Below are positions 5,583 to 47,311 of a stretch of DNA of 49,209 nucleotides, one piece after another (position 1 is the first letter of the stretch; the number at the start of each line of letters is the position of its first letter). Position numbers and translations under genes: made by a program. The notes below the pieces were generated by a model. It was not told the origin of the DNA. It was given only the letters and a program-made list of their open reading frames with translations, and made no database searches. Source of the DNA: Amoebophrya sp. A120 (taxonomy: Eukaryota > Protista > Dinoflagellata); contig CAJINV010000006.1 in NCBI GenBank assembly GCA_905178155.1, positions 1 to 49,209 on the forward strand, in the 5' to 3' direction.

Positions 5583-8500
5583 CTACTTCCTGCTCTTCCA
5601 TATGGGGCGCTTGAACGACGCCGGTCCAGTGGTCAGCCTCGGGGTCTGGTCTCCGCCCGTCACCTCGGCGGGGTCGTCTGCCGGCTTCTCCAGCGGTGGA
5701 AGTGTGAGGCCCGCGCTGTCGTCTTCCATTTTTGCGAGCTCCGCGGCGTTGAAGTAGGACACTTGGAGGCCGTTGCCCAGGGTGATGGTTTCCGCGTCGC
5801 ATCCTTCTGCGTCCAGGAGCCGCAGGATTTCCCTCCTCACCTTCAACGTGCAAACCGCGAGCAAGTCCGGGGGCATCGCTTGGAGCGATTCCACAGCGCA
5901 TCCTCAGCAAAAATGCCCCCACCCCAAAGCTGTCATGCAAATGCGCATTGACGCGAGCATTTGTAATGCGCATCTACATCTTCTACTCCTGTTTGCAGCA
6001 TTACAAATGCCAAAACACGATTAGAAATGCCTCCTATGGAGTCCATAAGGGGCATTTGCAATCGTGTTTTGGCATTTGTAATGCTGCAAAAAGGAGTGGA
6101 AGATGGCTTTCTCATGCGGTTACCCTTGCTAACCAGCACTACCCTGCAGGTGGAAACCTGTCATGCGCAACTGCCAAAACTTGGAGATTTGCTTTGCAGA
6201 TTCACCAACTTGGCTATAGGGTGGGGCCGTTTTTGCTCAAGATACTGTTGCACGCAGTGCCCCCCCGGACAATTCCACTGTCTCCGACGGAACCAGCACG
6301 GTGCTGTAAAATTGCCGGCTCTCGTAGAGATGACCCAGTGGCAGGACGTGACGGACGCGTTGCGCGTCTTGGACCGAAGCGGCCCCATCCATTCGGACCC
6401 CGAACGGGTTGGCCACTTTCTGCCCAATTGACTGGTAGTGGTCGTATTCTGAGAGCAGCTTTGTTACCCGGGCGTGTATGCATTGCAAATATCAATCTTG
6501 GTCTGGAACACTCTAATTTGTAATGCTAAGCGTGGATCCGATGCAAACAAATCTGTGTTGCATGATCACCAAAAGTTGTGAACTTTTAACCAAGTTGAGA
6601 GCAGACACTTTCTCATGCAGAACAGGCATGATACGGATCTCACAGCATCTGTCATGCTAGGTTCTGCATTCCAGAAGTCATGCGTCATGGAGAATCTGCA
6701 TGACAAGTCTTGCACTCTTCCAGACAAAGACATTTTTGCACTGGATATTGTGAAACGACGGGAGTTCGATTATCCAGGACTTCAGGGACTGCTGGATGGT
6801 ATATGGAATAATATTATCGAATGCAAATATGTCTGGGTCTGCAAGAATGCAACTTGTTTTGCTGCATTTGGATGGCAAAAAAATCTACATTGCATGAGCA
6901 GCAAAAGGAATCTTTTTGTTGCTACGCGGAAGGTGCATTTGTCATGCGGAATAGGCTTCAAGAAGCCCTCAAAAAATCTGTGGTGCTATCGCATGCATCA
7001 CACACATCATGCCTCGTGCAAAGCGTGCATGACAAGTCTTCCAATTTTCCAGACCCAGACATAATTGCATTTGATAAATACCAGGCACCGGCTGCGTCGT
7101 CGACTGGGGTGCTGTTTCGCTGACCGGCTTTGGAGAAGGGCTAGGGATTGTGTTGGTGACAAGTGGTGGTGGTCCCTTCGCTTCCATCTCGACGTAGTGG
7201 GACAACAGCTCGAGTTCGCTCTGGGCCCGCGTGGCGATGTCGATCAGTTTATCCTGAGTAGAAACGTCCCCACCCCATAGTCAAGTTCGTAAATCTGCAA
7301 CACAAATCTCGAAGTTTTGGGAGTTATGCATGACAAGGCTCCATCTGTAGTACTTTGTAGCAAGGGCAGCAGCATCACAAAGACGCCTGCTTATTCTGTT
7401 TACAGCATTACAAATCCGCCCAGAACACGACTACAACTTCCTCTCTCGCGGATGCGTATTACAGATTTTTGTGTAGATGCAAATCTGCATGACAACAACT
7501 ATGGGGTGGAGACTTTTTTACACAGGATACATTTTGTTGTGGAAGCGCGAACCGTAGTTGAAGTACTCCGTCGTGACTATCAAAAGGAAAAATCCCCCCA
7601 CCCCATACTCAAAGGGAGATTTGTATAGTATGATTTGTGATCACAAATCGCGTTGTCATGCTACAAGGTAAGAGATGCAGATTTCAGTGCTGGCTGGCAT
7701 GGGAAAGCTTTGCGTCTTCAGCATGACAGGAAGCAACTGGAAACAGGAAACAGCATGACAAATTTCCTGCAAACGAAGGAACAGCTGCGTCTTTTGGCCT
7801 TCTAGCAATACAAGTCGATTTGTGGTCACAAATCAGCATCACAAATTTCCTTTTTGATATGGGGAGGGGGGATTTTTCCTTTTGATAGTGACCTGGTTCG
7901 TGCTGAACATCGCGCTATCCAAAATGGTGTTCAACAGGTCGGTATGGATTGCAAAAGTGTCTGGTTCTGGAAGAATGCAACGTGTGATGCTATTTTTGGA
8001 ACCTAAAAAAATCTGTATTGCATGACCAGCAAGTACAGGCGTCCAGTTTTTGCGCTGCGGAGAGGGCATTTGTCATGCGGGATAGGCGTCATGATACCCG
8101 CAAAAAATCTGTGATGCTGGGGCATAGTACATCGCAGACATCACGGGCCGTGCAAAATGTGCATGACGAGCCTTGCAATCTTCCAGACCCAGACATATTT
8201 GCATTTGATAGGCGGTGAGTTCAATGTTCGGGTTATCGTGAGACAAGACGTCCCCGCGCCCCATAGATAAGATGGGAAATCTGCTAGAGAAATCGACAGG
8301 CTGTGGCTGTTGCGAATACAAATTTCAGGGTCGGAGTGTAGTTGTATTTCGCAAGTAGTATTCTAGCAGCATCACAGAGCGCAAATACCATGCTGATTCG
8401 AGCAACACAAATTATCTCAAAACACCACCAGAAAATGCTTCTCATGGGAACGAAAGATTTTACGCATGCAGAATTGCATTACAACTCTGGGTTGGGGACG

Positions 8501-10135
8501 TTTTGACACGGGATACGGGTTGCCGCAGTTGATCAAGCAGTCCCGGATGTAGTGTGTCGTGTTCTTATGAAAGTGCGCAACCCCTCCTCCCCCTCCTTTG
8601 TCATGCAAAGTACCAACTCCACGCCTTCCCTCTTGGCACTGTTTGCATGACAAATTTTGGCCGCCAAACTAGCACTAAAACCCTGCGCAAATTTGTCATG
8701 CAAAACTTGCACCCCAGCTGACGCTTGTGTTGCTTCTATTCATGCCCTATAAATGAGGGCGAGGGGGGGTTGTGCACTCTGATAGTTGTTCTCCACGGGT
8801 TCCATCTCTCGGACTATGCATTGCAAATATCGCTCGACGTCTGGAGAAGTGCAAGATTTGTCATGCTTCTATAACTGCAGAGTTTGTCGTGATGCGAGTC
8901 CCCGAGAAAGCTCTTGTCCTGACCATACAGAAAAACACATCGTCATGCAGAATGCGCAGCAGGTGCACTGGCCGTGCAAATTTTTCTCATGCTTGGCTGG
9001 TGATTATTACTGTCATTCTTTACAAGATAGCATTACAAAGTTCGTGGTCGAGAACAATATTTGCATTGCATACCCACCGGGACGCCTTCGGGTGCGAGGA
9101 TGGCTGCGACTTCCGCTAGATTTTCCAGTATCCCGTATCCTGAGTAAAAACGAGCCCACCACCCGATAATCAAGATGGGGATATATTTTTGGCAACACAA
9201 AAAATCCTGAAGTTCCGAGAGTCACGCATCACAAGTTCCACCTCTCTGTGCTGTAGTGCAGGATATCGACAACTACAGCCGCATCACAAAAACACCAGCT
9301 CATCCTGTTTACAGCATTACAAATGTCAAAACTCGGTTTGAAAAAATGCCTCGACTGGGATTTCGCATTACAAATGTTCCGTGTTAATTTTCAAATCCGC
9401 ATGATGAGAACGCTGGAGTGGGGACGTTTTGAGTCAGCATAGCCCGACCGAGACGTTGTACCCTTCTTCCCCACCGAGGAGTTGCGCCATGGTTGCCGGC
9501 GCCGCACTCCGGATCTCCTGCGACGGTTGGAGGGGCGCCCACAGATGCTGCAGCTTCTGCCCGGATTGCACGCATTCTGTTTCCAGCACCGCCAGTGACA
9601 CTTGGCCGCCCGCCGAAAAAAACATGTTGAGAGCGCCGCGGACTTGCACGTCGTATACGACGGCGTTGACTTTGACTCCCTCGGTTCTCGCGGGCTGTTC
9701 TGCACTATTGGGGGAGTGGTGTCTTCTCGCAGCGGCTTCTGCTTGTTTTTGGCGCAGAAGTTTCATCTTGTGCTCACTGTCATCTCTGTTGCCGTCGTAC
9801 GTGAGGTGGACGGGTTTCACTATCGTGTAGAAAAAAGTGTTTCACTGTATGCGATTCATTGTTGAAGTTTTGCATCAAGAGTTCGCTACGCATGACATGC
9901 AGTCCTCCTGAGGGAAAAGATCTTTCAAAACCTGATTTCCTCTTGCATGTGTTGTACAACTAGCAAGACAAATCCGTCTGTGTTGCATTCTTTGCGTCAC
10001 AAGCTCAATACAGGGAAACACTTTTTTCTTCCGATATTCAACGCAGGCGAAGGCGCCACGTTGGACTGGTTGTCAAACACGGTAACTTCACTTCTGCCGT
10101 CATCCGTGAGTGGGGACCTATGGACGCGGAGTGAG
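5583..10135 (-). CDS. Gene G1, unknown protein, at least 12 exons separated by 11 introners; 5' end unresolved
   Basis: Manual splice is open throughout: SLRVHRSPLTDDG..KPVHLTYDG..NVSVG|ILENLAEVAAILAPEGVPV|EMEPVE|NTTHYIRDCLINCGNP|NIELT|LLNTILDSAMFSTNQV|TTEYFNYGSRFHNK|IDIATRAQSELELL..|IPYTIQQSLKSWIIELPSF|HARVTKLLSEY..|VESLQAMPP..WKSRK*. Confidence 0.85.
5899..6244. mobile_element. Introner, B-like family
   Basis: catcctcagcaaaaatgcccccacccc ... ggggtggggccgtttttgctcaagata; degenerate TSD cagcg/ctgtt; removal keeps frame. Confidence 0.75.
6477..6747. mobile_element. Introner, family A
   Basis: tatgcattgcaaatat ... atttttgcactggata; TSD gcgtg/ttgtg. Confidence 0.85.
6815..7076. mobile_element. 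Introner, family A
   Basis: tatcgaatgcaaatatgtctgggtctg ... cagacccagacataattgcatttgata; TSD aatat/aatac. Confidence 0.9.
7250..7529. mobile_element. Introner, family B
   Basis: tatcctgagtagaaacgtccccacccc ... ggggtggagacttttttacacaggata; TSD cagtt/cattt. Confidence 0.9.
7578..7887. mobile_element. Introner, family C
   Basis: tatcaaaaggaaaaatcccc ... ggggatttttccttttgata; perfect TSD gtgac. Confidence 0.92.
7943..8210. mobile_element. Introner, family A
   Basis: Family A TIRs; TSD gtcgg/ggcgg. Confidence 0.9.
8234..8515. mobile_element. Introner, family B
   Basis: Family B TIRs; perfect TSD cgggt. Confidence 0.9.
8566..8784. mobile_element. Introner, family D
   Basis: tatgaaagtgcgcaacccc ... 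ggggttgtgcactctgata; TSD gttct/gttgt. Confidence 0.85.
8815..9072. mobile_element. Introner, diverged family A
   Basis: tatgcattgcaaatat ... atatttgcattgcata; TSD cggac/cccac. Confidence 0.8.
9136..9441. mobile_element. Introner, family B
   Basis: tatcctgagtaaaaacg ... ggggacgttttgagtcagcata; TSD tcccg/gcccg. Confidence 0.85.
9821..10036. mobile_element. Introner, family E
   Basis: tatcgtgtagaaaaaagtgtttcactg ... cagggaaacacttttttcttccgata; TSD ttcac/ttcaa. Confidence 0.88.
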
Positions 10136-11329
10136 TACCATGCAAGAGGACAAAAGAGCTGCAATTTTAGTGCGATTCTGGACCACGATGGAGACGATGC
10201 AAGACACAGAAGCCTGCCATGCGAAACTTTTGTCACACGCAGCATATTTATTTTACCTCATATTTTGATGTACTAAGCTGCGCACAACAAGTTTTTGTGA
10301 TGCAACTTCCTTTGGATGAAAAGAGCCTGCCTGGCTAGTGAGTCGCACCATTGCAGTTTTTTTGTCGGATAAATACACTGGCCGGTTTGTGGTGGGTGAG
10401 ATGCCCGTCTGCAGGAAGAACGCATCGCACAGAAAACCGCTAGCAAAGGGTGTTTGCAGATGTGCAGACAAATTTCGCTCTGGGCATGACAGGTTTGTTC
10501 TTGTGCTGGTTGTAGTATGCACGGCTGCTCTGGGGCGATGGCGATTACTATTTTCATGACAGAAGAACTTTCACAACACGTCCACCGCTGCGCTAGCATT
10601 TTTCTGTTCCATATTGCTTTTGGTGCTGGCCGGGCGCGTGCACCTGGAAAAAAGACATTATTTCACAGGTCTAAAAGAACGTCAAGCGATTTATTGGTGA
10701 TTTGAGGTTATTTACTCGTCCTGCAAGTGAGCTGTTGAAAACACGCGCAGTTGTGCTACAGAAAATTATCACAGAACAACAGGACTATGGCGAATAAATC
10801 CAGCACAATTATGGAAAGTCCTCATGATGCAATCGTGCAAGAATGAATCAAAACTGACAATAAGACGGTCCTGAGAGAAGATTTTGGACGAAAAAAAAAG
10901 TTCAAGGAGACGCAACAAAACCGAAGATGGAAGGTCTGGAGAGCAGCTGCAGCTGTCTCATGAAAAAAATGTTCACAGCAGACTTCTTTGAATATTGTCA
11001 CGGGTGTCTCAACGGATAGTGTCAACATCGGCAATGGATCAATGTCTTTTTTGGGCGTCTCGAGAACAGCAACATCACAATCAAGAACAGCCTCCTGCTT
11101 TTCAACGCAGACTACTGAAGAGTGTTCGCACGAACATACGAACAGGGAATAGTTTCTTTAGCGCACACAATTGTGAAACAAGTAGGTTCTTTCTCGCGTA
11201 CGAGGGTTTGCTTCGTCGGGTCTTTTTGCAAGACAGCTCTGAATATCTGAAGTTTCTTGGTTTTGTCTACCTCAGCAATTTTCAATTAGCCCCTGCAGCG
11301 AAGTCATCGGAACTACATCACGTCGCTGG

Positions 11330-11649: not shown

Positions 11650-13745
11650 TTAACGCACAGGTTTTATCAAATGCAAAAATGTCTGGGTCTGGAACATTCT
11701 AAACTTGTGACACTGTCTCTGGATTCCGAAAAAATTTGTATTGCATGACCAGCAAGAGGACTCCAGTTTGTGCCATGCGGAGAGGGTTCCCATGCTGTAG
11801 AGGTATTGCAAAGCGCTGTAAAAATCTGTGATGCTACGGCACGCATCACAGACATCATGGGTCATGGAAAATATGCATGACAAATCTAGAAATCTTACAG
11901 ACCCAGACATTTTTGCAATTGATAGGTTTGAATCTCGCACCCGCGTTCGGTCCATTCATGGTCCTTATCCACCGCAAATCTGTCTGGGCTTGGAACCAAA
12001 ATGCAAGCTTGCAATGCGAACGCTGGGTCACATGAAAATTTGTGTTGCAGCGTGAGTGTGCCGCCTACGAATTGCCCACTTACTGCTGCACAAAAAGCGA
12101 ACCCTCCCCCGTATTGAAGATGCATGATGGGGTAGGAGAAAAACACGGATAACCGGCTTTGCATCATCCAAATAAAGAGGCATGACAAATACGCAAGATC
12201 TACTTCCCGACCCAGACATTTTTGCGTTGGTTATTCTTCTTGGCGTCCTGCAGAGCCTTGCAGCCGACCTCCAGCCTATGCATTGCAAATATGTCTGGGT
12301 CTGGAGAAATGCCAGGTTTGTCATGCATAGTTTCCATGACCGATGACTTTCATGATGCAAGCCCTAGCATCACAGACTCTGCGAAGGCTTTCTGATGCTT
12401 TTACCGCATGAGAAATGCCCTCTCCGGGTAGCAAATACGGATTTTATCGCACATGATCTAAAGGCACCATGACAAGTCGCATCCTTCCAGACGCAGACAT
12501 ATTTGTAGTGGATATAACCATCGCGCGAACAATACCTGCTCTCTATCCTTTGCAAAAACCCCTCCCCCCCCCAACTTTATCATCCAAAGATGCGGGCCCA
12601 AGACGTTTCGCATGCGTAACCCCATGAGGGAATTTGTATATGGTAATTTGAAATTTGTCATGCTACCAGCAGGATAAATTGATCGATCTGTGATACGGCC
12701 GCACCAGCTGACTTTAGGTACTTGCAGCACTGCGATGGCCCGATTGTGCTATGCTAACATCTCCTGTTCCTGTAGTACACAGATAGTGGGGCGGAGGCGT
12801 TCTTCCTCAAGATACTCTTTCTCAGTGTAGTGCTGGTTCGGAGTAGTGTGGCGGTCGCGAAAGGCGGCGTCGCCTGTATGGAAAAATAAAAATGTATACG
12901 GAAAGAAAGTGATAAGCGAGAAAATAAATGATTGCATTTGTCATTCATCAACAGCTCGCCGCTGAGCATAGGTTTATCATGCCTACCGGCTCTATGAGAA
13001 GAACGTCATCTTTGGTGGAACTCATCAACGGAATAATCAAAACTTACAACCCAAGTGCGTTTTCGCCTCCGGCACCGCTGAATCCATCGTTTTGACCACG
13101 TCTTCCAGGAGGCGACAGGACTTCTTGTCTTTTTTTCCCACGTATTCGAACAGATCCCGAATGTACTGTGTTGTTTGGGTGCAAGAGAGGTCTCTTGTTT
13201 CAGAAAAAAATCATACGAAGTAGTAAGCAGAGCTGGAGACGGGGCGAAGCCCTGGTGAAGAAACAAAATAAAGTCCGAACTGGTCGTCGCACCAGGGGCC
13301 CGAAATGTTTTCTTTACCTTCTCCCAGAGCCCGTGCGCACTCACCGGCTCTTCGTGCATCGGAAACATTGTCAACAGCCCTTTGACCATGTACTTGTCGT
13401 CTCCCGACATGCCTGTTTTTTTGGTTTTATCTGATAATAACCAAGTACACCTGCGTTCTCGGGCTCTGTGACAAAGTGACACTATCTTTCAGTTTCGACG
13501 AATTGTACTTATACAATGAGGAAAGGAAATCAGATTACGCATATTATACCGACTTTGATATAACGCTCTGCTGGCCCAGCGCGGGGGCACATGCCGACTC
13601 GGTTCTGCGTATGGTGGTGGGTGTAGCAGAAGTAGGTCAGGATTTCAAGCATCAACTCAGGTCCTCTGTTCTCCGGGATTGTTTGCGTGTAAAGCAAGTC
13701 GGGGTCCAACCCACAGCAGACAGCGAACAAAAGATCGCAAAGCAT
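11650..13745 (-). CDS. Gene P1, unknown protein, paralog of P2; 3' end uncertain
   Basis: Starts MLCDLLFAVCC..PELM..MCPRAG..IKVGI. Later exons splice to GDAAFRDRHTTPNQHYTEKE|QVLFARWL|EVGCKALQDAK. Confidence 0.65.
11665..11924. mobile_element. Introner, family A
   Basis: Family A TIRs; perfect TSD ggttt. Confidence 0.92.
11966..12233. mobile_element. Introner, family A
   Basis: tatccaccgcaaa ... tttgcgttggtta; degenerate TSD gtcct/ttctt. Confidence 0.8.
12277..12514. mobile_element. Introner, family A (opposite orientation to 11665)
   Basis: Family A TIRs; TSD cagcc/taacc. Confidence 0.85.
12544..12814. mobile_element. Introner, diverged family B
   Basis: tatcctttgcaaaaaccc ... ggcgttcttcctcaagata; TSD ctctc/ctctt; removal keeps frame. 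Confidence 0.75.
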
Positions 13746-14134: not shown

Positions 14135-14362
14135 ACACGAGCGACATGCCGACGACTCAAAAACCCGTAGTCCTCTCTTATGCTTCTCGACCCTCTCTGA
14201 TGCTCTTGCAAACGACCAGCAGAACAACGTGCCTTGGAGCTAGACAACTGTTGTGCTCTGCCAGCTGATTTCGCAGAATTTCAAGTAAGGCCTAAAGCTT
14301 CTTTCAAATAAATCAACATTAGTGCCGTTTGAAGCGGTCGGAGAAGTAAGCGAGTTCTTCTA

Positions 14363-14623
14363 TTATTGCTTGTCCATCTCAGCCCGCCGCGCAGCCTCCA
14401 TTTCTTGCCACTGCATCTCCCGTTCTTCATCCCAGGATTGGCCTTGGTCCACCGAAGGGGAACCCACTTCCACGGACGGCGACCTGGCTACGACAGGAGG
14501 AAAGCGCCGTCGGGGCTGTAGGTTCCAGCGCCGTGCCAGGTACTCGTCCTCCGACGGCAAGCCACGCAGTTTGTCCAGCAGGTCGTCCAACCTGTCCCGC
14601 AAACACTGGAACAGCAGGTACAT
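14363..14623 (-). CDS. 86-aa small ORF, copy 1
   Basis: MYLLFQCLRDRLDDLLDKLRG..AEMDKQ*; conserved from start to stop with 19711-19971. Confidence 0.6.
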   Translation of the reverse strand: MYLLFQCLRDRLDDLLDKLRGLPSEDEYLARRWNLQPRRRFPPVVARSPSVEVGSPSVDQGQSWDEEREMQWQEMEAARRAEMDKQ

Positions 14624-15151
14624 GGGCGTGGTGCTATAGACTGGCAGTTGCTTGTTGGTTGTTGTACTTCGATAGATAGAAACAAAAATATCTGTGTGTC
14701 GGCCCCGACGGCACACTCCGTTTAGCTAGAACAATACACTGTGGAAGGACAAGCGAAAATGTTCATTCAGTGGCACACGAAGATCGCTCATTCACTCGGC
14801 TCCAGTGCGACAGTCATGCCGACATCAGAAATTCAGCGTACAAGGAACAACGAAGCCTACCACTGGCGATGCGACCTGATCTTTGGTTCATTCCCTGTAC
14901 ACGTCGAGCCCTCAAACGAATTTCTCTCCTGCTGTCCTCTCTCACAGTACGAAATCAAAATGCAGACGTTGCTTTTTGCGTCGAACACGCGCTGCGCTTT
15001 CACGCTCAACAACGAAGATTCATTTCCAATAAACGGCGCGACTTGGTTTTGTAGCCCACGACGCTTCCAGAGATACCGATCCGCAACTTTTTGGTCTAGT
15101 AGAGGTCTTTTTGCAAGACAAATATCACCCGAGAGGTCGAGGGGCTTGTTC

Positions 15152-15599: not shown

Positions 15600-16487
15600 C
15601 TAGTTCTGAAAGAAACTTCGAGGTTGTTGTTGGCGAAAAGGTGTAAGAAAGCAGGAGAAATTTACGAGCAAGGCTCGATAAGAAAAATTGTAGAAGCAAG
15701 ACAATACCTCTGCCCACGCCCCAAACGTACACTTTCCCGCGGGCGCCGGGTTGGTGCGCACCGGGCGCAGAAGGGGGTAGAAGAGTCCCATAGACTGTTC
15801 CTGGTCGAATTTAATGCTGTTCGAGATGTCCTCTAGCAGGGGCAACTGGTCTTTCAGAGAGTCTTGATGGAGCTGGATCACTATCAGGTGCAAAAGCGCA
15901 AAAGCGTATCCATCGTATTCAAAGACCTGCCTGTTTGGAACAACTTCATCACAAAAGACCTCCCTGCGATAGTACACAACCTTTGCCAAGAACGGGGTTC
16001 ATGATAGAACAAACTGCCGGCTTTTCTTTGATGCAGATCGCGAAGCAGTACAGACAAGCAAAGAGCTTATGCACTTTTCCTTTCTGATAGTTTCCACGTG
16101 CCGGACAATTCCGATCGCGTGCTTCACCAATGCACCCTATGCATCGCAAATCTGTCTGGGTCTGGAAGAGTGCAACTTGTAATGTCCTTTTTCATTTGTA
16201 ATACAAAAATCTGTCATGTGTGAGAAGCAAAAGCTTTCATTTTTGACCACCCTGAGAGAGGATTTCTATATGCTGAGCAAGCATTGCAATTCTCTCACAT
16301 AACCCGGGATGATGGACTCTGCATTTCAGACCTTCTGGGGCCTGCAAAACCTGCATGACAAACGCTGCGCTTTTCCAGATTCAGACATCTTTTCAAGTCA
16401 TACGCCCTTTGGTATAGCGATTCCGCGAATCGACTCCGGGTGGGCCGGAACACAGCAACTTTCCCAGAAGTTGGGAAGCCCGAACAT
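15600..16487 (-). CDS. Unknown protein, 3 exons
   Basis: Splices to MFGLPNFWESCCVPAHPESIRGIAIPKG|ALVKHAIGIVRHVET|PFLAKVVYYRREVF.. after removing 16138-16402 and the mini-element 16001-16089. Confidence 0.65.
16138..16402. mobile_element. Introner, family A
   Basis: Family A TIRs; TSD caccc/cgccc. Confidence 0.85.
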
Positions 16488-17413: not shown

Positions 17414-19062
17414 TCAGTCACGGAAAGTCCAGTTCATCCTTGCGTCGACAAACGCGTCGCGACCCGTCTGCAGCCACTGGTGGAAGAGCATCAATATTCA
17501 CTGCAAATATTATGTCTGGGCCTGGAAGATCGCGAGATTTGTCATGGTAGTCTGGCATGAGTCAGAGCTTTGTATGGCGTTCCCACGAAGAGGGTTTTGT
17601 CTCTGTGATGCAAGCACGCTGTTTGTCATGCGTAATATGCAAGAACACAGAGGAGCAGCCGCAAAGAAATCTGTCATGCTTGGTTCATCATTCATTGACA
17701 TGCGTCACAACTTTCCAGACACGTAGATATTCGCAGTGGGTAACGAGTTCCGCATTCCTCCAGTTCTTCTCGCCGTGCGCTAGACGGAATTCCTCCTGAC
17801 CTGTGCCAAAACGTGTGAGAGTGTGGCGGGGCCAGATACACATTAAAGCACGAAAAGTGGGAGAAGTAAAGAAATGGCATGCGAACACAGAGCGCAAGAC
17901 AAACAAATATGAACGCAAAAGTAGTACGGCCAAGGCCCTGGGCTGCTTGCGGCACTAGACGGTCCATGGTCTTCAGCACGGCCTCGGGCTTATCCCACAG
18001 AAAAAAGCAGGCAGGCCAGATTTGTAATGCAGAAACAAATACGCAGAAAAATCTGTCACGGGCGACCTCGTTTCTGCGTATTTATTTTTGCATTACAAAT
18101 CTGAGCTGCCTGCTTTGTTCTGGTCTGATACAGCAACCTTGCTCGGGCCGGGTCCTTCTTCATGAGCCAGCAAAACAATTCCCCGATGAACTGTGATATG
18201 GTTTGTCTTTCCGAGTATCATTTGACTTGCTTCTGTGAGGATAACATCAGTATAGCTTTTCCATATAGCTCGATTCAGAAATAAACCACACAGTGGCTAG
18301 TACGATTAGGGTGAAGATCATGTTAGAAACAAGAAAAAATATTCTACCTCGACCCAAACTGCACACGATTCCTGATACTTGTCCTCCGGAACGCGAGTCA
18401 TGACCTCCTGCACGAGCCAGAGCTGGTGGGAAAACACTGAGTTTTAGGTATAGTGGATACTGAAAAAATATTCTTCCACTGAAATAAAAAAGCTTGCAAA
18501 TAACTTAAGCTGAGTGGTTAGTTCTTACATGCGCCGAGAAGAAACAAGTAGCAAATTTTATCTTCTTATACCGACTTTGATCCGCGCCTGCGCGCGTCCG
18601 GGACGGGGGCACATCTGTACGGTCGTGCGTAGATGTTCGCAAAAAAATATCAGGATTGAGTGCATCAATATCCTGTGCAAAAAAGACGTCCCCGCCCGAT
18701 TGTCAAGATGAGGCCTACGGGGTAAGAAAAACCCAGAAGTTGGGACTTAATCTTGACGAGTTTACTTCTTCTCGTTTAGTGCACGTTATAGCATCACAAA
18801 GCCATCAGCTGATCCTGTAAGCAACCTTCAGAAATGCCAAGGAACTTGGCCAGGAACAATGATGGCGCTCATGGGATCATGTTGGCTATGCGCATTACAC
18901 ATTGGCTCCTGCAGATGTAATGAATCCGCTTGACAACTCTGGGGTCGTGGCGACGTTCTTGCGGAGGATAATTAAATCCGGGGAGCTCAGTGGCGGAATA
19001 GGTTTGGTGCACAGGAGATCACTCTGCGTGGGACAGCACGGAACGAAGAGGAAGTCGAACAT
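17414..19062 (-). CDS. Gene P2, unknown protein, paralog of P1
   Basis: MFDFLFVPCC..PDL|MHSILIFFC..MCPRPG..IKVGI and last exons GQEEFRLAHGEKNWRNAELV|LFHQWLQTGRDAFVDARMNWTFRD*. Middle exons unresolved. Confidence 0.65.
17495..17742. mobile_element. Introner, diverged family A
   Basis: tattcactgcaaatat ... atattcgcagtgggta; TSD eroded, but removal with 5 nt keeps frame. Confidence 0.78.
17991..18130. mobile_element. 140-bp fold-back element with TATC...GATA ends
   Basis: aaagcaggcag..atttgtaatgca..aaatacgcagaaa pairs with tttctgcgtattt..tgcattacaaat..ctgcctgcttt; no clear TSD. Confidence 0.65.
18669..18970. mobile_element. Introner, family B
   Basis: Family B TIRs; TSD atcaa/attaa. Confidence 0.85.
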
Positions 19063-33170: not shown

Positions 33171-33180
33171 GAGACGGGGG

Positions 33181-34090: not shown

Positions 34091-34109
34091 ATTCTACAGT
34101 GCTTGTTTC

Positions 34110-34330
34110 AAGTGCGCGCGGTTTCGCACCTGATTCTTTGAGCCCGGCCAGAACAAAAGTTGCCACTTTTGCCTTTCAAAAAGTGGCCACCTTTCTCTCC
34201 CAAAAAGTGCGCGTGGTTTCGCACCTGATTCCTGAAGCCCGGCCAGAACAAAAGTTGCCACTTTTGCCTTTCAAAACGTGGCCACCTTTCTCTCCCAAAA
34301 AGTGCGCGCGTTTCGCACCTGGTTCTTTGG
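34110..34330 (+). repeat. 95-bp tandem repeat (~2.3 copies)
   Basis: aagtgcgcg..tttcgcacctg..aaaagttgccacttttgcc..ctcccaaa is repeated. Confidence 0.9.
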
Positions 34331-35186: not shown

Positions 35187-37287
35187 CTATTGTGTTGGGA
35201 ACCGACGGTGAGAACGGACTCTCCTCGCGAATTCCGACGAGTTTTTCACTTCGTACTGCAGTTGCGGATACCGGATGTCCCAGGTTTTCCTCGTGGCCGC
35301 CTGCTGCAGTGACGGTTGCTCTGCTGGTGCCGCACTTTTTGCCGGCACGCTCGCGGCCGGCTCAACACTTGGGCCAGCGGGTTCCTCAGCGACGGTGTGC
35401 GGGTCTGCTTCCTGCTTTCCCGAGGACGCGCTGCTCCGGCCGCTGGTATTTATTTCCGCGCACACGACTTGCGCCGTTGGGTCGGAGGTGTCGTTATGCA
35501 CTGCAAAAATGTCTGGGTCTGGAAGCAGGATGGAACTTGTAATGCTAATTCTGGATCGTGCAAAAATCTGTGTTGCATGAATGCCAAAAGTTGTCCACTT
35601 TTGACCAAGTTGAGAGGAAGTTTCTCATGCAGGATAGGAATGATACGGATCTCACAGAATGATCTGTCATGCTAGGTCCTGCATTCCAGACGCTATAGTT
35701 CATGGAAAATCTGCATGACAAGGCGCACAACCTTCCAGACCCAGACATTTTTGCATTTGATAGTCGTCTCCAGTCGGACCACCGCCTTTTGTCGTGGTAG
35801 GGTCGGTGGTGGCGGGAGGATTCTCGTTATGCGTGGTGGTTGGGCCGCTGCCTGTAGTTCCACACAGAGGGAGCACGGGGACGTCGACCAGTTGTGGCAC
35901 CACCATGTGTGTACTGACAGCCCTTATCAAAATGAAAAATCCCCCTTCCCCAGGTCGAAACGGCACGCCTCAGAAAATTTGTAATGCTGATTTGTGACCA
36001 CAAATCGCGCCTGTCTTGTAAGAAAGCAACGCCACAGACAACCGCCCCATTATGCAGGCAGTTTGTAGTAATGCTGGTGGGCCTACAGCATAGACGCTCC
36101 TCATGCTACAGTGCCTAGGCCAAAACCTCTGTACCCTGGCATGATATGGCCATGCAATCCTCCACTGCAAGACAAAGGCGATTTGTGGCCACAAATCAGC
36201 ATTACAAATTTCCGTTTCGATATGGGGAGGGGGGATTTTTGCTCGCGATAGCCCTGCAGCAAGGGCACTTGAGCGGATTTTTCACGTGCTGGACGCGCGG
36301 GAGGATTTGCCCAGGAGAACGGAATATGCACTGCAAAAATGTCTGGGTCTGGAAACGTGTGATGCAAGAAGTCCGTCAATGACAAATGCACTGTAATGCG
36401 CGGCCAAGTATGACAAGTTTGTTTGAGCTTCTGTTCTGCGTACTTACTCCGCATCAGAAACTGCGTTTTTGTATGACAGGTGAGAGAGGCAGAGGCTGTT
36501 TTCTGGCCACGCAATACAGATTTGAGGGCCATGCCAGACCAGCATGGCAAGTCTCGCGAGCTCTCAGACCCAGACATATTTGCATTCGATACGGATCCGC
36601 ACTTCCCGCGTTGTGACCACGGTGGATTCATAGTCCTTTATGCAGGCCGTGTGGAAGACGTGGCCGCAGGTATCCTATGCAAAAACGTCCCCAGCACCCC
36701 AGAGTTGTCATGCAAATCTGCATGCTGAAAATGTTTCCCATGCGGAGCCCCATGAGAAGCATTTTTCGCTAGTCGAGTTTTTAGAATTTGTGATGCTCAA
36801 ACCAGCATAAGGCGCTAGATTTGTAACGCTGTTGCACTAGCTAAACACGACTACACTTCTGCCAGCCCAAACTTGTCATGCGTAACAGCCAAAGCTTGTC
36901 GATTTGTCTTGCAGATTTCCCAACTTGACTATGCCTATGGGATGGGGACGTTTTTACATATGATAGCAGGGGATCAGCTGGGACACCTGGTCGTCCGGAT
37001 CCATGATGTCCAAACAGATTTTATGGCGTTCTCAACTGTTACATCCTCAACTGTTACACGAATTTGTTATGCAAGAATGGCAAACAAAGTGAAAGGACGG
37101 AGCTTGCGCGTCTTGCATGACAGATTTGGTACAGATTTAGACGCTGTTATTACAGCCATTCGAGAACTTGTCATGCGAAGCAGCTGGATCGTCTGGTGGC
37201 TCATGGTCATTTTGCATGACAAGTCAGGTAGCAGTTGAGAATGTAACGTTTGAGAACGCCATAGATTTGGCATTCTGGCTGCAGCAT
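35187..37287 (-). CDS. RING-H2 (C3H2C3) finger protein, putative E3 ubiquitin ligase; 6 exons
   Basis: Spliced MLQPECQI|CLDIMDPDDQVSQLIPC|GHVFHTACIKDY..RIR|SPGQ..NPLKCPCCRA|VSTHMVVPQ..GDD|TSDPTAQ..FPTQ*. All eight zinc ligands are recovered. Confidence 0.85.
35495..35762. mobile_element. Introner, family A
   Basis: Family A TIRs; perfect TSD gtcgt. Confidence 0.93.
35925..36250. mobile_element. Introner, family C
   Basis: Family C TIRs; perfect TSD gccct. Confidence 0.92.
36325..36591. mobile_element. Introner, family A
   Basis: Family A TIRs; TSD cggaa/cggat. Confidence 0.9.
36671..36965. mobile_element. Introner, family B
   Basis: Family B TIRs; perfect TSD gcagg. Confidence 0.92.
37022..37263. 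mobile_element. Introner, family G
   Basis: tatggcgttctcaactgttacatcctcaactg ... cagttgagaatgtaacgtttgagaacgccata; perfect TSD gattt. Confidence 0.92.
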
Positions 37288-38303: not shown

Positions 38304-39447
38304 CTACGCTCTTCTCGTTAATAAAATACGTTTTTGCCGGGCACCTTGCGATCGTGGCGCTATTTCTCTTTCCATACTCCTCACATGCTATCATACGAAA
38401 AAAGTGTTTCCCTGTAAGGATTTTGCAAGTTGTGCATCACATGAAACAGAAAATCTGCCATGCGCGCTTCCCAATTTAAACCGCTCCTAAAAGTCCAATG
38501 TCTTGCGGGTGTAGCAAGACAGATACTTCTGTGTTCCATTCTATGCATCACAAGTTCACAGTGAAACAGTTTTTTCTTGTGATACATGCGACTCAATCTC
38601 CGTCCACTCTGGAGCCCGGTAGCGGTGCCCCGTGCCTTGCAGCAACACAGACGTGCAGCGGCCGGAAGACAGGAAGCCCGAGGCCGCCAGGTCACTTGCG
38701 TATCAAATGTAAAAGTGTCTGGGTCTGGAAGAATGCGAAATTTGTTATGCTGTTTTTGCATGACACAGAATGTCTGTCATGGAAGCCCTAGCATCACAGA
38801 TCTTTAGAGGCCTTCCTGATACCTGTGCTGCATGACAAATGCCCTCCACGCGTAGCACAAACCGGACTCCTTTTGCTGGTCATGCAATACAGAATTTTTT
38901 AGAGTCCAAAGTTAGCATCACAAGTTCCAACCTTCCACACCCAGACATTTTTGGAATCCATATTGCGGCCTGGCAGTCGATGATTTTGTCCTCGTCGCCG
39001 TGGAGAATCAGCACTTTTGGTCGACTATCAAGTGCAGAAATGTCTGGGTCTGGAAGGATGTAGCTTGTGATGCGCATTTCAGAACACACAAAAATCTCTG
39101 ATGCATAGGCAGCAAAAGCTGCTCACTTTCTCTCACCAAAATGGGTGACTTGTCATGCGGATTCGGCATTGCGGAAGCTTCTCGAAACCTGTGATGCTAG
39201 AGCTTCCATGCCAGACCTTCTGTGTCATGCAGAAACAGCATCACTATTCCAGACCCAGACATTTTTACATTTGATATCGACGCGGTGAAAAAACAGACGA
39301 ATTATCGGTGCTGGCAACACGACCCGGAAAAGATCCCGCTCGTTTCTCCTTGCCACCAGTTCTTTCTGCAATCTCGACTTTCACACTGCTTGTTGCAACA
39401 TCCGTGCTACAGTTTTTATCTGCGGCGGATGAAGCCGGCGCGTCGAG
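38304..39447 (-). CDS. C-terminal part of an alpha/beta-hydrolase; 5' part rearranged or lost in the gap (possible pseudogene)
   Basis: Spliced SPRR|PKVLILHGDEDKIIDCQAA|SDLAASGFLSSGRCTSVLLQGTGHRYRAPEWTEIESH|VRSMERE..RRA*. HGDED (catalytic Asp) and GTGH (catalytic His) motifs are present; no GxSxG was found. Confidence 0.72.
38389..38584. mobile_element. Introner, family E (opposite orientation to 9821)
   Basis: Family E TIRs; perfect TSD catgc. Confidence 0.92.
38701..38962. mobile_element. Introner, family A
   Basis: Family A TIRs; perfect TSD ttgcg. Confidence 0.92.
39026..39276. mobile_element. Introner, family A (duplicated at 41396-41646 and 43638-43888)
   Basis: Family A TIRs; perfect TSD tcgac. 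Confidence 0.92.
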
Positions 39448-40165: not shown

Positions 40166-43100
40166 NGCGGGCGCCGTCAACGCGCAGCAGCCCGGGCCCA
40201 GCGTCCCGATTTAATCGGCGAAACAGGTTGGGCCAAGGCGCTCTCCCGGCCGATTCTATCGTCGAAACAGGTCGCGCGGAGGTGTTTCGACGTCGAAACA
40301 CCTTCGCCCGAGCTGTTTCGCCGCTAGAATCGGGAAACACAGCCTGGTTGGCTCTCGTCTGCGCAGCCTTTTCTTTCTTGGCCGGCCCCCGTTCCAGAGG
40401 TTTTTCCCAGGCGGGCGATACCTCTGCGTTGGAGGTGGGGCCGCACCTTTCTTGGCCTTGCGAGCGGGACACGCACTGCCGCTGTGCGACAACGTGTGTG
40501 CCTGCCCAATTCATATACGTGTTATTTTTGAGTCATGGTTGGCGCAGAGCCCGTGGGGCTCACGGCCACCGAGACCACCACGCGTTTCTTGGAAGGCAGG
40601 AGTGAATGGAAGGCCAGCAACCTCGGGCGCTCGGCGAGTCGGTATTGGCAAGGCGCCCGGCCGCGCTATGGAGCGCGGCTGCATGCTCTGTATCTGTTTG
40701 CGTTTGGTATGCGGACATAGATATGCGTGCGCTTGTCTTGCTATGTGAATTGCTCACTGGTGGCCGTGCTCTATATGTTCTCTTCCGCCCTCGTCCTTCC
40801 CGGGGGCGTAGAGCCTTATTTCCAAATGGGACGCCACAGTGAAAATCCCACCTGGTAAGAGCGGTAGGAAAGTAGTGAGGCCGACGAGATCGGGCGTGAA
40901 TCGCGCCGGCGCCTGCACGTGCACAGAGCCCTTTTTGCGGCGTTTGAGGTGCCCCGCCGGGCTCTGCAGCGCACTCGTTTCCGCTGGCTATCGTGAATAT
41001 TTTCCGATAGCTATCGTAGTCGCGATGGTACCGGAATAAATGAGTGTGCGTCCATAGCTGTTATGCAACACAGATTTTTACTTGCTTCAGAATCTGCATC
41101 ACAGGTCTGCATCCTTCCAGTCGGAGTCCAGGGGGGGGTATTTGCAATGCATAGAATTCCGATTCGTCAAACGGGTACTTGGGTCCTGATACCTGTGCTG
41201 CATGACAAATGCCCTCCACGCGTAGCACAAACCGGACTCCTTTTGCTGGTCATGCAATACAGAATTTTTTAGAGTCCAAAGTTAGCATCACAAGTTCCAA
41301 CCTTCCACACCCAGACATTTTTGGAATCCATATTGCGGCCTGGCAGTCGATGATTTTGTCCTCGTCGCCGTGGAGAATCAGCACTTTTGGTCGACTATCA
41401 AGTGCAGAAATGTCTGGGTCTGGAAGGATGTAGCTTGTGATGCGCATTTCAGAACACACAAAAATCTCTGATGCATAGGCAGCAAAAGCTGCTCACTTTC
41501 TCTCACCAAAATGGGTGACTTGTCATGCGGATTCGGCATTGCGGAAGCTTCTCGAAACCTGTGATGCTAGAACTTCCATGCCAGACCTTCTGTGTCATGC
41601 AGAAACAGCATCACTATTCCAGACCCAGACATTTTTACATTTGATATCGACGCGGTGAAAAAACAGACGAATTATCGGTGCTGGCAACACGACCCGGAAA
41701 AGATCCCGCTCGTTTCTCCTTGCCACCAGTTCTTTCTGCAATCTCGACTTTCACACTGCTTGTTGCAACATCCGTGCTACAGTTTTTATCTGCGGCGGAT
41801 GAAGCCGGCGCGTCGAGTATCCTGTGTAAAAACGTGTCCATACCAGAGTCGAGATGGGAAATCTGCTAGACAAATCAACCAGCTGTGGTTGCTTCACATG
41901 ACAAATTTGTCCTTGTAGTGCAATCCTGTTTCAGTAGTTGAGCAGCATATACAGATCTAGCATATAATCAGGGTGAGACTAGAAAATGCTTCTCCTGGGG
42001 CTCCGCATGAGAAACTTTTTTGGCATGCAGATTTGCATGAGAACTCTGGCGTGGGGACATTTTTAATCAGGATCATATCGAGGAACGCTTCCAGGTGTCG
42101 GCACTTCAGATTGATGCCGCCGCGTTTGATGGCGTTGTTCAGTCGCTGCTTGAATTCCGCTTCGTCAAACGGGTACTTGGATCCGTGGTAGAGCGGCAGC
42201 ATCTGGTTTTGCAGGGTTTGGAGTTGTTGGATTCTGCTTTTCGGCAGGCGCCCGGCTCCTTTGTTTCGCCTCTTTCTTCGACGCTTGCCACTGCCAGCAC
42301 GCGCTGGCCGGGCGGCTTTTCTCGTCAAGTTCCGCCGGCAATAGGTTATGGACAGCTGTGGCCCTGTGCCGCGGAGTTTTCCCCCATTTCCTGTTCTGTT
42401 TCTGTCCCGCGGGCGCCGTCAACGCGCAGCAGCCCGGGCCCAGCGTCCCGATTTAATCGGCGAAACAGGTTGGGCCAAGGCGCTCTCCCGGCCGATTCTA
42501 TCGTCGAAACAGGTCGCGCGGAGGTGTTTCGACGTCGAAACACCTTCGCCCGAGCTGTTTCGCCGCTAGAATCGGGAACCACAGCCTGGTTGGCTCTCGT
42601 CTGCGCAGCCTTTTCTTTCTTGGCCGGCCCCCGTTCCAGAGGTTTTTCCCAGGCGGGCGATACCTCTGCGTTGGAGGTGGGGCCGCACCTTTCTTGGCCT
42701 TGCGAGCGGGACACGCACTGCCGCTGTGCGACAACGTGTGTGCCTGCCCAATTCATATACGTGTTATTTTTGAGTCATGGTTGGCGCAGAGCCCGTGGGG
42801 CTCACGGCCACCGAGACCACCACGCGTTTCTTGGAAGGCAGGAGTGAATGGAAGGCCAGCAACCTCGGGCGCTCGGCGAGTCGGTATTGGCAAGGCGCCC
42901 GGCCGCGCTATGGAGCGCGGCTGCATGCTCTGTATCTGTTTGCGTTTGGTATGCGGACATAGATATGCGTGCGCTTGTCTTGCTATGTGAATTGCTCACT
43001 GGTGGCCGTGCTCTATATGTTCTCTTCCGCCCTCGTCCTTCCCGGGGGCGTAGAGCCTTATTTCCAAATGGGACGCCACAGTGAAAATCCCACCTGGTAA

Positions 43101-44059
43101 GAGCGGTAGGAAAGTAGTGAGGCCGACGAGATCGGGCGTGAATCGCGCCGGCGCCTGCACGTGCACAGAGCCCTTTTTGCGGCGTTTGAGGTGCCCCGCC
43201 GGGCTCTGCAGCGCACTCGTTTCCGCTGGCTATCGTGAATATTTTCCGATAGCTATCGTAGTCGCGATGGTACCGGAATAAATGAGTGTGCGTCCATAGC
43301 TGTTATGCAACACAGATTTTTACTTGCTTCAGAATCTGCATCACAGGTCTGCATCCTTCCAGTCGGAGTCCAGGGGGGGGTATTTGCAATGCATAGAATT
43401 CCGATTCGTCAAACGGGTACTTGGGTCCTGATACCTGTGCTGCATGACAAATGCCCTCCACGCGTAGCACAAACCGGACTCCTTTTGCTGGTCATGCAAT
43501 ACAGAATTTTTTAGAGTCCAAAGTTAGCATCACAAGTTCCAACCTTCCACACCCAGACATTTTTGGAATCCATATTGCGGCCTGGCAGTCGATGATTTTG
43601 TCCTCGTCGCCGTGGAGAATCAGCACTTTTGGTCGACTATCAAGTGCAGAAATGTCTGGGTCTGGAAGGATGTAGCTTGTGATGCGCATTTCAGAACACA
43701 CAAAAATCTCTGATGCATAGGCAGCAAAAGCTGCTCACTTTCTCTCACCAAAATGGGTGACTTGTCATGCGGATTCGGCATTGCGGAAGCTTCTCGAAAC
43801 CTGTGATGCTAGAGCTTCCATGCCAGACCTTCTGTGTCATGCAGAAACAGCATCACTATTCCAGACCCAGACATTTTTACATTTGATATCGACGCGGTGA
43901 AAAAACAGACGAATTATCGGTGCTGGCAACACGACCCGGAAAAGATCCCGCTCGTTTCTCCTTGCCACCAGTTCTTTCTGCAATCTCGACTTTCACACTG
44001 CTTGTTGCAACATCCGTGCTACAGTTTTTATCTGCGGCGGATGAAGCCGGCGCGTCGAG

Positions 44060-44316
44060 TATCCTGTGTAAAAACGTGTCCATACCAGAGTCGAGATGGG
44101 AAATCTGCTAGACAAATCAACCAGCTGTGGTTGCTTCACATGACAAATTTGTCCTTGTAGTGCAATCCTGTTTCAGTAGTTGAGCAGCATATACAGATCT
44201 AGCATATAATCAGGGTGAGACTAGAAAATGCTTCTCCTGGGGCTCCGCATGAGAAACTTTTTTGGCATGCAGATTTGCATGAGAACTCTGGCGTGGGGAC
44301 ATTTTTAATCAGGATA
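44060..44316. mobile_element. Introner, family B (duplicated at 41818-42077 and 39448-gap)
   Basis: Family B TIRs; perfect TSD tcgag. Confidence 0.9.
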
Positions 44317-44800
44317 TCGAGGAACGCTTCCAGGTGTCGGCACTTCAGATTGATGCCGCCGCGTTTGATGGCGTTGTTCAGTCGCTGCTTGAATTCCGCT
44401 TCGTCAAACGGGTACTTGGATCCGTGGTAGAGCGGCAACATCTGGTTTTGCAGGGTTTGGAGTTGTTGGAGCTTTTTTCTTCTTGCAGGTCATGCATACG
44501 CTGCAGACATCTCTGCATCATCTGGAAAGATGCAGCCTGTAGCCCGTATTTTGCACTCCTGCAAAACCTGCGCTGCACAACCTGGAGAACGCAGCTCGTA
44601 GTGCGTGCCGTGTTCGAGAAAGCGCCATAAACAAAAAATGCCGCGCCTGCCTGTGCTCAGAAGCTGTGGAAGCACACGTACTTCGATCAGCGTTCCAAGC
44701 TTCGCCCAGACCCACTCAAGTTCTCCGATGATATTTTCTAACCCTATATCCTTACATGTGCTAGCGAGATCCACGAGGCGCAGGCACCAGCTCGGGAAGA

Positions 44801-46751: not shown

Positions 46752-47024
46752 TATTGGAAGGAAATATTCCCCCTCCCCATATCGAAAAGAAAATTTGTGC
46801 TGCTGATTCTTGACTTTGTCTTGCGCACAAGGCAGTCTGTCATGCAGTTTCGCCTATGTCGGACTTGTTTCTCATGCTCAGCTGCTAGCCGGATGCGGAT
46901 CCAAAAGGGCTTAGAATATGCCGACAAGCTGCTCTCGCTGCAATACAAAGCTCATTTGTATACACAAATCCAGCAACACAAATTGTCTTTTGAATACGGG
47001 GTGGGGTCTTTTTTCTCTTTGATA
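46752..47024. mobile_element. Introner, family C
   Basis: TSD acacc/acgcc; empty site at 48299-48303. Confidence 0.9.
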
Positions 47025-47094
47025 ACGCCATAGCGGCTCAGCGTGCCACTGGCCTGAAGGGCGGTCAGCTTGCCCCGCAACTCGATGACCTGGG

Positions 47095-47311
47095 TATCGT
47101 GAGAAAAAAGTGCTTCCCTGTAAGGATTTTGGCAGGTTTGCATCACAAATTGGTAATACACATGACAAAGAAAACTTGCCATGCGAGGTTCCTAGGCGAA
47201 AACAGAGCTAAAAACTCAATGTCTTGCATGTGTAGCAAGACAAACGCGTCTTTGTTCCATTCTATGCATCACATATTTATTACAGTGAAACAGTTTTTAT
47301 TTCTCGCGATA
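47095..47311. mobile_element. Introner, family E
   Basis: Perfect TSD ctggg; empty site at ~48364-48368. Confidence 0.92.

Follow-up and report, generated by a model that had tools for sequence, protein, structure and literature searches.

How can the same inserted element be removed from a transcript in either orientation, when canonical splice signals are specific to one strand? This question is raised by the window, the whole 49,209-nt stretch of DNA that was analyzed from Amoebophrya sp. A120 (contig CAJINV010000006.1, assembly GCA_905178155.1), in which copies of several element families lie both ways round within genes.

Identity and orientation of the elements

The inserts in the window are the published introner elements of Amoebophrya sp. 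A120 and so belong to an already known kind; two window exons match proteins labeled Amoebophrya sp. A120 at 100%. The elements are 190-350 nt long, with inverted ends TAT...ATA and a target duplication of 5 nt, and they are non-coding, so that they carry the features of miniature inverted-repeat transposable elements (MITEs): short length, inverted ends, a fixed-length target duplication, and no coding sequence. The window contains 114 copies of the end motif TAT-N7-AAA, compared with 26 ± 5 in 200 shuffles, and among 43 supported introns the direct-repeat match is 0.71 at a length of 5 nt and 0.22-0.30 at other lengths. The accessible parts of PMC7789003 (Farhat et al. 2021) describe the same elements, about 240 nt long, with inverted repeats of 8-20 nt that start TAT + 7 nt + AAA, direct repeats of 3-5 nt, non-GT-AG boundaries, and co-oriented genes.

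Two host genes, both on the minus strand like all features listed below, have contig and protein support. Host gene 1 (2184-10774) corresponds to P0002, a public protein of 686 aa without a Pfam family, and contains 14 elements in its contig-covered part. Host gene 2 (24900-37287) corresponds to P0001, a public protein of 1083 aa with a RING finger at its N terminus, and is interrupted by one GT-AG intron and 26 introns of the element type. The original prediction placed all host genes on the minus strand; this holds for these two, and the strand of the others comes from open frames only. No Pfam match was found for 18 window ORFs, and a homologue search with the exon at 9443-9814 found none. 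Matches in the loci fetched from a relative were element copies, with no orthologous locus among them; the 20 long ORFs from these loci included no transposase that could mark an autonomous partner, and viral contigs searched for element matches gave 0.

To assign orientation, element interiors were aligned after trimming 35 nt from each end, using a score threshold of 60 (shuffled null maximum, 35.5). This alignment yielded five families that together hold 45 copies; the elements at 8566, 26494, and 37022 are assigned to none of them. Family A has 12 copies one way and 7 the other, linked by 106 pairwise edges of which 0 are inconsistent. The forward copies lie at 6477-6747, 6815-7076, 7943-8210, 11665-11924 (perfect duplication), 11966-12233 (presumed 5' end TAA), 16138-16402, 25601-25846 (3' end GTA), 27611-27891 (3' end ATC), 35495-35762, and 39026-39276, the last repeated at 41396 and 43638 as part of a duplicated block. 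The reverse copies lie at 12277-12514, 26189-26457, 26952-27212, 30230-30489, 38701-38962, 47884-48150, and 32331-32603, this one nested in the 5' inverted repeat of an outer element (32062-32608). The predicted opposition of 6815, 7943, 11665, and 35495 to 12277, 26952, 30230, 38701, and 47884 was therefore borne out by the interior alignment, as was that of 7250 to 30545 in family B. The latter family has 7 copies oriented like 7250-7529 (8234-8515, 9136-9441, 18669-18970, 29505-29784, and 44060-44316, with a copy at 41818) and 5 in the opposite orientation (5899-6244, 3' end ATG; 12544-12814; 25912-26151; 30545-30822, which has an 8-nt flanking repeat; and 36671-36965). No orientation bias was seen (family A, 12 versus 7, p = 0.36; family B, 7 versus 5, p = 0.77).

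Families C and D also occur both ways: C at 7578-7887 (perfect duplication) versus 27264-27587, 29861-30177, 35925-36250, and 46752-47024, and D at 8815-9072, 17495-17742, and 25279-25535 versus 36325-36591. For family E, two orientations do exist, but the copies named as opposed, 9821-10036 versus 38389-38584 and 47095-47311, all point the same way (9821 versus 47095, score 75.5 in the same orientation and 22 in the opposite; 9821 versus 38389, weaker, 52 and 40), and the flipped members are 28382-28590 and 31315-31540. Four elements lie within the RING finger, those at 35925, 36325, and 36671 and one at 37022-37263. Near them, the elements at 34470-34751 and 34764-34993 (3' end ATC) lie 3' and 5', respectively, of a 7-nt exon, and the canonical GT-AG intron (32894-34440) has a 94-nt tandem array inside.

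Removal of elements and the position of the cuts

Thirty elements are absent from probable-RNA contigs, and the element-bearing form is kept in the DNA-like run X1; the RNA status of the runs with joined contigs is a guess, and X3, X4, and X6 are one sample. A single 3024-nt contig lacks 15 of 15 elements, including family A and B copies of both orientations, so the predicted removal in either orientation is seen even inside one contig. Among the 14 copies named in the original prediction, joined contigs lack 8 (6815, 7943, 11665, 26952, 30230, 7250, 30545, and 9821), 35495 is supported by public protein P0001 alone, and 5 (12277, 38701, 47884, 38389, and 47095) are only bridged by open frames of 83-213 aa, with 83 aa at 12277. 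Also absent from contigs are the copies at 8234, 25279, 25601, 26189, 27264, 27611, 29505, and 31315; for 11966, 12277, and 12544 there is no joint among those listed. Raw RNA runs X9 and X10 gave 94 and 2 reads, all partly on one element end, leaving the genes uncovered, and X5 held unspliced pieces and element noise only.

Each removal takes out the element plus 5 nt. Reading frame cannot separate this from element plus 2 nt; the lengths of the joined contigs did. With the elements taken out, reading frames of 558 and 807 aa are regained; among 1000 random-offset controls, 0 and 1, respectively, attained these lengths.

When the joints were resolved, an intron that starts 1 nt before TAT and ends 4 nt after ATA (the 1/4 register) fitted 13 of 13, compared with 9 of 13 for the next-best register and 5 of 13 for the mirror register; in 3 of the 13 it was the unique fit, with zero ambiguity. 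A unique 1/4 cut is found at contig joints for 6477 and for a worn element with a 1/5 duplication and 3' end ATG (10423-10613), and at a contig loose end for 5319-5602 (duplication 1/5). Other contig joints give cut 1-5 (6815 and 9821), 2-5 (8566-8784), 4-5 (8815 and a worn element with 3' end ATG, 10139-10371), and 0-4 (9136), and joints were also obtained for 7578 and 11665; cut 4-5 applies as well to 28382 and to a worn element with no duplication and 3' end ACA (28645-28922). In family B the cut is 3-5 for 7250 and 4-6 for 5899 (both contig joints), 25912 (by protein), and 30545, so that the mirror register fits neither orientation; the polarity of the cut therefore comes from the transcript.

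Public proteins place cut 4-6 for 7943 (P0002) and 29861 and a unique 1/4 cut for 2418-2667 (target duplication lost; P0002), 26494-26786 (duplication 1/5), and 31731-31975 (worn, no duplication, 3' end ATC; P0001). The register also fits 2723-3030 (3' end ACA; P0002), and P0001 supports the element at 32678-32880 (3' end ATG). Under the 1/4 rule there are 0 mismatches over 807 aa of P0001 and 0 over 330 aa of P0002, although these proteins were possibly built on the same kind of data as the contigs and are not independent support. The GT-AG intron at 4095-4231 fits the 1/4 register too, and one public gene model is off by 1 nt under the rule. In the accessible text of PMC7789003, splice sites are described as variable relative to the hairpin, with no clear signature; here, in contrast, a single register fits every resolved joint in both orientations, the informative junctions including none from reverse family A copies. 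No description of a 1/4 cut rule was found in the accessible literature on these elements, and no statement on element orientation was found in the accessible text of PMC7789003.

In principle, the direct repeats on the two sides of an element could determine the joins, whether in the cell or through template switching of reverse transcriptase across the hairpin. A perfect 5-nt repeat is present in 16 of 43 introns, and the hairpin is strong in most. However, the register holds where the target duplication is absent and fits the 10 of 43 introns with at most 2 of 5 repeat matches left, three contig junctions have zero ambiguity, and 30545 is flanked by an 8-nt repeat and yet its sum fits element plus 5. 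Together with the restored frames, these results make repeat-directed joining improbable.

Excision of the elements from DNA was also considered. Ciliate internal eliminated sequences have TA-bounded ends, as do the A120 elements, and the RNA nature of the joined runs is only guessed. Against this, run X1 keeps the elements at exon depth (20-31 across elements and 28-34 in exon-only bins), with contigs that enter and cross elements; the cut is polarized along the transcript regardless of element orientation; and by arithmetic the lengths of the joined contigs imply that GT-AG introns are missing there as well. DNA excision is thus very improbable. The table of joints from X1 is swamped by other copies and could hide rare joined DNA.

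Signals at the cuts and the candidate mechanism

Across the 43 supported introns, the conserved positions are +2T (43), +3A (43), +4T (42), -7A (42), -6T (40), and -5A (36), whereas the +1 base and the last four bases are free. The sole exception at the 5' end is TAC, in the element at 35028-35255. The GT/GC donor and AG acceptor of U2-type introns do not describe these elements, as 11 of 43 begin with GT and 0 of 43 end in AG.

These counts bear on the idea that each orientation carries its own canonical signals. There is precedent in the introners of Polarella glacialis (classes 1, 2, 3, 6, 7, 8, and 10) and Aureococcus anophagefferens, which the accessible text of 10.1101/2020.10.14.339549 likewise describes as inverted-repeat non-autonomous transposons that form introns either way and lose one duplication length. 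In those introners either the element or the duplication supplies G[TCA]-AG sites, and orientation is biased; the A120 elements differ in having no AG, no constraint on the +1 base, and no observed bias. Despite the 11 GT starts, 0 of 30 contig-supported introns could equally be cut at GT/GC/GA-AG on the sense strand (AT-AC, 1 of 30). As predicted, canonical signals fail to explain removal, and this alternative is highly improbable.

The prediction that recognition must rest on symmetric features held in part. The signal does lie in the terminal inverted repeats common to both orientations, but the cut is polarized by the transcript, and the best-kept bases, +2, +3, and -7, are not mirror partners. 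Of the changes in the outer two end pairs, 13 of 15 affect the 3' side, and of those in the third pair, 6 of 7 affect the 5' side (pooled p = 0.002; p = 0.17 in each set alone, not significant). Altered ends in the window number 1 of 43 at the 5' side and 11 of 43 at the 3' side (p = 0.003). The relative did not reproduce this better keeping of the 5' end (7 versus 3 of 140), and two of its presumed 5' ends lack +2T. In the relative, AG at first seemed over-represented at the 3' cut (16 versus 4 for the mirror), but the difference was gone when flanking positions served as the comparison (p = 0.06), and the pooled data contain no AG preference at this cut (16 of 183, p = 0.21).

A dedicated non-spliceosomal pathway would recognize the paired inverted ends and use a short motif in them to place its cuts at set distances of 1 and 4 nt. 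This is the logic of the nonconventional introns of Euglena, which, in the accessible text of PMC12501133, have the signature N3-CDG...CH'G-N5-6, its short complementary motifs each standing at a set distance from the cut, different at the two ends; these introns have no GT-AG, a suspected MITE origin, and canonical introns alongside. The Euglena motif CDG/CH'G lies at 3 and 5-6 nt and the A120 motif TAT/ATA at 1 and 4 nt; the former introns need a purine after the 3' cut (PMC12501133) and are excised as circles (review PMC11282704). The lack of constraint on the +1 base and on the last four bases in A120 agrees with such a pathway. Two points also speak against a spliceosomal reading: PMC7789003, which gives a tally of 83 of 89 spliceosomal proteins, detected every major snRNA in A120 except U1, and the predicted fold closes at least 8 of the first 16 end pairs in 21 of 30 removed elements, as a hairpin model expects.

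However, the predicted fold closes none of these pairs in 6 of the 30, and the sequences give no sign of selection for RNA pairing of the ends: G-U pairs do not outnumber A-C pairs on the sense strand in the window (19 versus 24) or in the relative (55 versus 88), and the end-to-end pairing energy has no sense-strand advantage (13 versus 16 of 30). The conserved bases are not mirror partners, and the invariant +2U occupies the donor position of spliceosomal introns. We therefore regard a Euglena-like pathway as a minority possibility, although a serious one.

Instead, we favor, at a probability of roughly 0.55, removal of the TAT...ATA elements either way at 1/4 cuts by a U2-type spliceosome, with N|UA resembling a donor and the A at -7 as candidate branch base. 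Insertion would be by a cut-and-paste transposase; N|UA(U) would serve as donor, the A at -7 as branch point, and the 3' cut would be measured from that A with no scanning for AG. The hairpin may bring both ends together but would not be the main signal. Because the ends are mirror images, a flipped element presents the same sense-strand sequence at its ends, so orientation would not matter and a strand-specific spliceosome is compatible with removal in either orientation. Since the 1 and 4 nt add up to the 5-nt duplication, the message is restored. GT-AG introns are present in the same genes as element introns. In the accessible text of PMC7789003, the nine commonest non-canonical motifs of A120 (Table S4) all begin N-T.

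The MITE-derived introns of Fritillaria borealis are alike in using transposon ends in splicing and are reportedly removed by the U2 spliceosome (PMC11282704; 10.1101/2025.08.15.670264, accessible parts). There the ends are the splice sites (AG-AC, AG-AT), whereas in A120 the cuts lie outside the ends, in duplicated host bases. A stronger form of the spliceosomal reading, which we hold more tentatively, is a second spliceosomal code, N|UA(U)...(G/C)AUA-N4|, that works without U1 RNA, a fixed +1 base, or AG, and in which one end sequence acts as donor when first and as branch site when last.

Significance of a fixed register

The removal of about 65% of A120 introns was left as an open question in PMC7789003, as far as its accessible text goes. 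A fixed register predicts the donor (+2U, +3A), the branch base (-7A), and the 3' cut, explains the spread of the elements regardless of orientation or target sequence, and is usable for correcting gene models. If the spliceosome does the removal, a natural system can do without both the AG acceptor and +1G; otherwise, A120 is a second case of Euglena-like splicing. Should the second code be real, the elements would make perfect introns wherever and whichever way round they insert, and a single rule would account for the tens of thousands of splice sites described as "variable".

Introner families and their two orientations

The window holds about 60 introner elements of 190–350 nt (named here by start coordinate), which start with TAT, end with ATA and carry inverted repeats of 15–30 nt. 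TAT-N7-AAA, the motif stated for A120 elements in the accessible part of the published description (PMC7789003), occurs 114 times, compared with 26 ± 5 in 200 shuffles, and the match between the flanks of 43 introns peaks at 5 nt (0.71, versus 0.22–0.30 at other lengths from 2 to 9 nt). When orientation was set by both-way alignment of element interiors with the ends removed, 45 of the 60 compared elements fell in five families and 15 outside. Both orientations were present in every family (12 and 7 copies in family A, 7 and 5 in B, 1 and 4 in C, 3 and 1 in D, and 3 and 2 in E), with no contradictory pair among 153 edges and no orientation bias at the window's sample size. The original prediction had listed the orientations of family A and B copies correctly by this alignment; it had set 9821 against 38389 and 47095 in family E, but these three share one direction, and 28382 and 31315 are the flipped copies.

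At 32062–32608, an older element contains a family A copy (32331–32603) within its 5' inverted repeat. Removal of this nested copy by the cut rule described below restores a TAT-N7-AAA end, a rebuilding that suggests two-step, intron-within-intron removal. Family A left ends at 46366, 46553, and 48910 have no assigned right end and are possibly truncated copies.

By a scan of metagenome contigs, we identified at least 133 loci in one other assembly, with element copies at most 95% identical to those of the window, both among the matches listed. With six overlapping loci dropped, the 127 listed loci of this relative contain 286 elements, again with 5-nt repeats (0.91). A codon model assigned the strand in 46 of these loci (140 of the 286 elements) and matched the Pfam-defined strand in 5 of 5 calls. 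Judged from sequence, family A lies both ways in the relative as well (22 versus 14 and 8 versus 9). The relative's families also adjoin conserved genes, among them those for a chaperonin (L051), an SNF2 protein (L007), and an ABC transporter (L052).

Removal of the elements and the cut register

In the region 24900–32950, X3, a run presumed to be RNA, yielded a single 3024-nt contig, which skips 15 elements between its six listed pieces. The skipped length equals the element plus 5 nt directly in four of the five gaps, and in the fifth after a 1-base correction of one element start. In both family A (25601 and 27611 versus 26189, 26952, and 30230) and family B (29505 versus 25912 and 30545), copies lying either way round are absent from this contig, which bears out the earlier claim that one family is removed in both orientations. 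Between 5550 and 13300, X3, X4, and X6 (presumed RNA, one sample) gave at least 12 single-element joints (from 15 of 17 rows, 2 of the 15 being links between element copies); a loose end resolves a thirteenth, and at least one further joint spans two elements. Contigs from the DNA-like run X1 extend into and over elements at a depth of 20–31, similar to that of exon-only bins (28–34); the X1 joint table was swamped, and rare joined DNA may exist.

All 13 resolved joints among those listed remove the element plus 5 nt. Each is compatible with a 1/4 register on the sense strand, in which the intron runs from 1 nt before TAT to 4 nt after ATA; the next register fits 9 and the mirror register 5, and at 5319, 6477, and 10423 the 1/4 register is the sole one permitted. 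Two public proteins labelled Amoebophrya sp. A120, P0001 (1083 aa, RING finger) and P0002 (686 aa, without a Pfam family), each show 100% identity to a different window exon, and both host genes (24900–37287 and 2184–10774, respectively) are on the minus strand. The 1/4 rule reproduces P0001 across 15 junctions with no mismatch in 807 aa, and residues 66–395 of P0002 with none in 330. A 948-nt gap and two others in P0002 aside, 13 further introns placed by these proteins also fit, 26494, 31731, and 2418 uniquely at the protein level. Because the public models could derive from RNA data of a similar kind, they sharpen the register rather than replicate it. Rule-based removal leaves open frames of 558 and 807 aa; in 1000 trials, random offsets reached the first in none and the second in one.

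The original prediction had proposed comparing junction position by orientation. In family B, 7250 permits cuts 3–5 and 5899, 25912, and 30545 permit cuts 4–6; neither orientation therefore uses the mirror cut, and polarity is thus set by the transcript, not the element. Family A reverse copies all have perfect duplications and are hence uninformative on polarity; the 7943 junction is ambiguous in contigs and 4–6 by protein. Since 10 of the 43 introns keep at most 2 of 5 duplication matches, the duplication is not the signal.

At 8810–9073, the intron is 264 nt in the P0002 model, whereas 263 nt are missing from each of three contigs. With the shorter cut, the frame stays open for 212 extra codons upstream, so the first 65 residues of the model are probably in the wrong frame. 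A homologue search with a third window exon gave no match because the public model is shifted. A 7-nt exon at 34753–34759 is flanked by two elements, and the 1/4 rule on both sides gives the P0001 sequence. Elsewhere in the window, a 2242-nt block at 40167–44650 is repeated head to tail (99.9% over the first 1900 nt) beside an N gap, either a recent duplication or an assembly artefact; one 32-nt exon-like stretch occurs five times (42200, 44439, 45594, 46689, and 48241) amid rearranged gene pieces; and two short coding stretches on the minus strand (~14320–14640 and 19715–19970) look similar by eye.

Signals at the cuts

Among the 43 introns with support, the base at +1 varies freely (C14, G11, T10, A8), +2T and +3A are invariant, and +4T occurs in 42. 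On the 3' side, −7A (42), −6T (40), and −5A (36) precede four free bases; none of the 43 ends in AG, and a preference for AG at the 3' cut was tested and rejected. An equivalent GT/GC/GA-AG cut on the sense strand was found in 0 of 30 tested introns, and AT-AC in one. G-U was not favoured over A-C on that strand (19 versus 24 in the window, 55 versus 88 in the relative, counts that are not independent, as copies are related). Predicted folds closed the ends of 21 of 30 elements and none of the first 16 pairs in 6. Pooled over window and relative, changes in the outer two pairs fall on the 3' side in 13 of 15 cases and third-pair changes on the 5' side in 6 of 7 (p = 0.002 pooled; p = 0.17 in each set alone); overall 5'-over-3' conservation was not repeated in the relative (changes 7 versus 3, n = 140), but this positional pattern was.

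Some protists and yeasts have branch sites that keep a constant, short spacing to the 3' cut. We consider it somewhat probable (roughly 0.55) that the spliceosome removes these elements, with N|UA(U) serving as the donor and −7A as a candidate branch point, from which the 3' cut would be located by measurement. Counted for this are the GT-AG introns in the same genes, one of which fits the 1/4 register, and the N-T start of 9/9 of the commonest A120 non-canonical motifs (Table S4 of PMC7789003, a source available in part). The same source reports most spliceosomal proteins for A120, together with U2, U4, U5, and U6, but did not detect U1 RNA. Dedicated, non-spliceosomal, hairpin-guided cutting as in Euglena, where the available text reports a proven spacer rule (PMC12501133), is a less probable but plausible alternative. 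Removal in either orientation is expected because the element ends are mirror images. The proposal that recognition rests on symmetric features holds only in part: the ends that carry the signal are shared by both orientations, but their reading is polar. The 5-nt duplication would be the work of a transposase; none was found among 20 long ORFs of the relative's loci, and viral contigs gave 0 matches.

A 137-nt GT-AG intron at 4095–4231 also reads G|TAT...ATA-ACAG and is possibly an old element turned canonical. Tandem arrays lie at 33157–34186 (~94 nt), inside a GT-AG intron, and at 22557–24186 (~190 nt), the latter resembling 378–489.

Relation to known introners

The feature is real and belongs to a known system, the elements being published (PMC7789003); observed here are the anatomy of the elements, their two orientations, the loss of each element together with 5 nt, and a single polar register. 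The accessible text of that paper describes A120 splice sites as varying with respect to the hairpin, and its Figs. 3 and S19–S25 may bear on the register. Strain A25 has TTA ends, and its motifs invariably start with TT. Introners of Polarella and Aureococcus lie in either orientation, as here, but, as far as the available text goes, have canonical sites (10.1101/2020.10.14.339549), unlike the 30 introns tested here. Later reviews and papers, in their accessible parts, repeat Farhat and give no rule (PMC11282704, PMC12130899, PMC9860276, PMC12787238, PMC12005148, PMC11453091, and 10.1101/2025.08.15.670264). In the literature searched, with subscription papers mostly outside it, neither orientation independence nor the 1/4 register was found for Amoebophrya; within that scope, the novelty is an unreported property of already known elements. 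The relative's loci beside conserved genes are suited to checking the rule against conserved proteins, and a fixed cut rule with predicted donor and branch bases makes a question stated as open testable.
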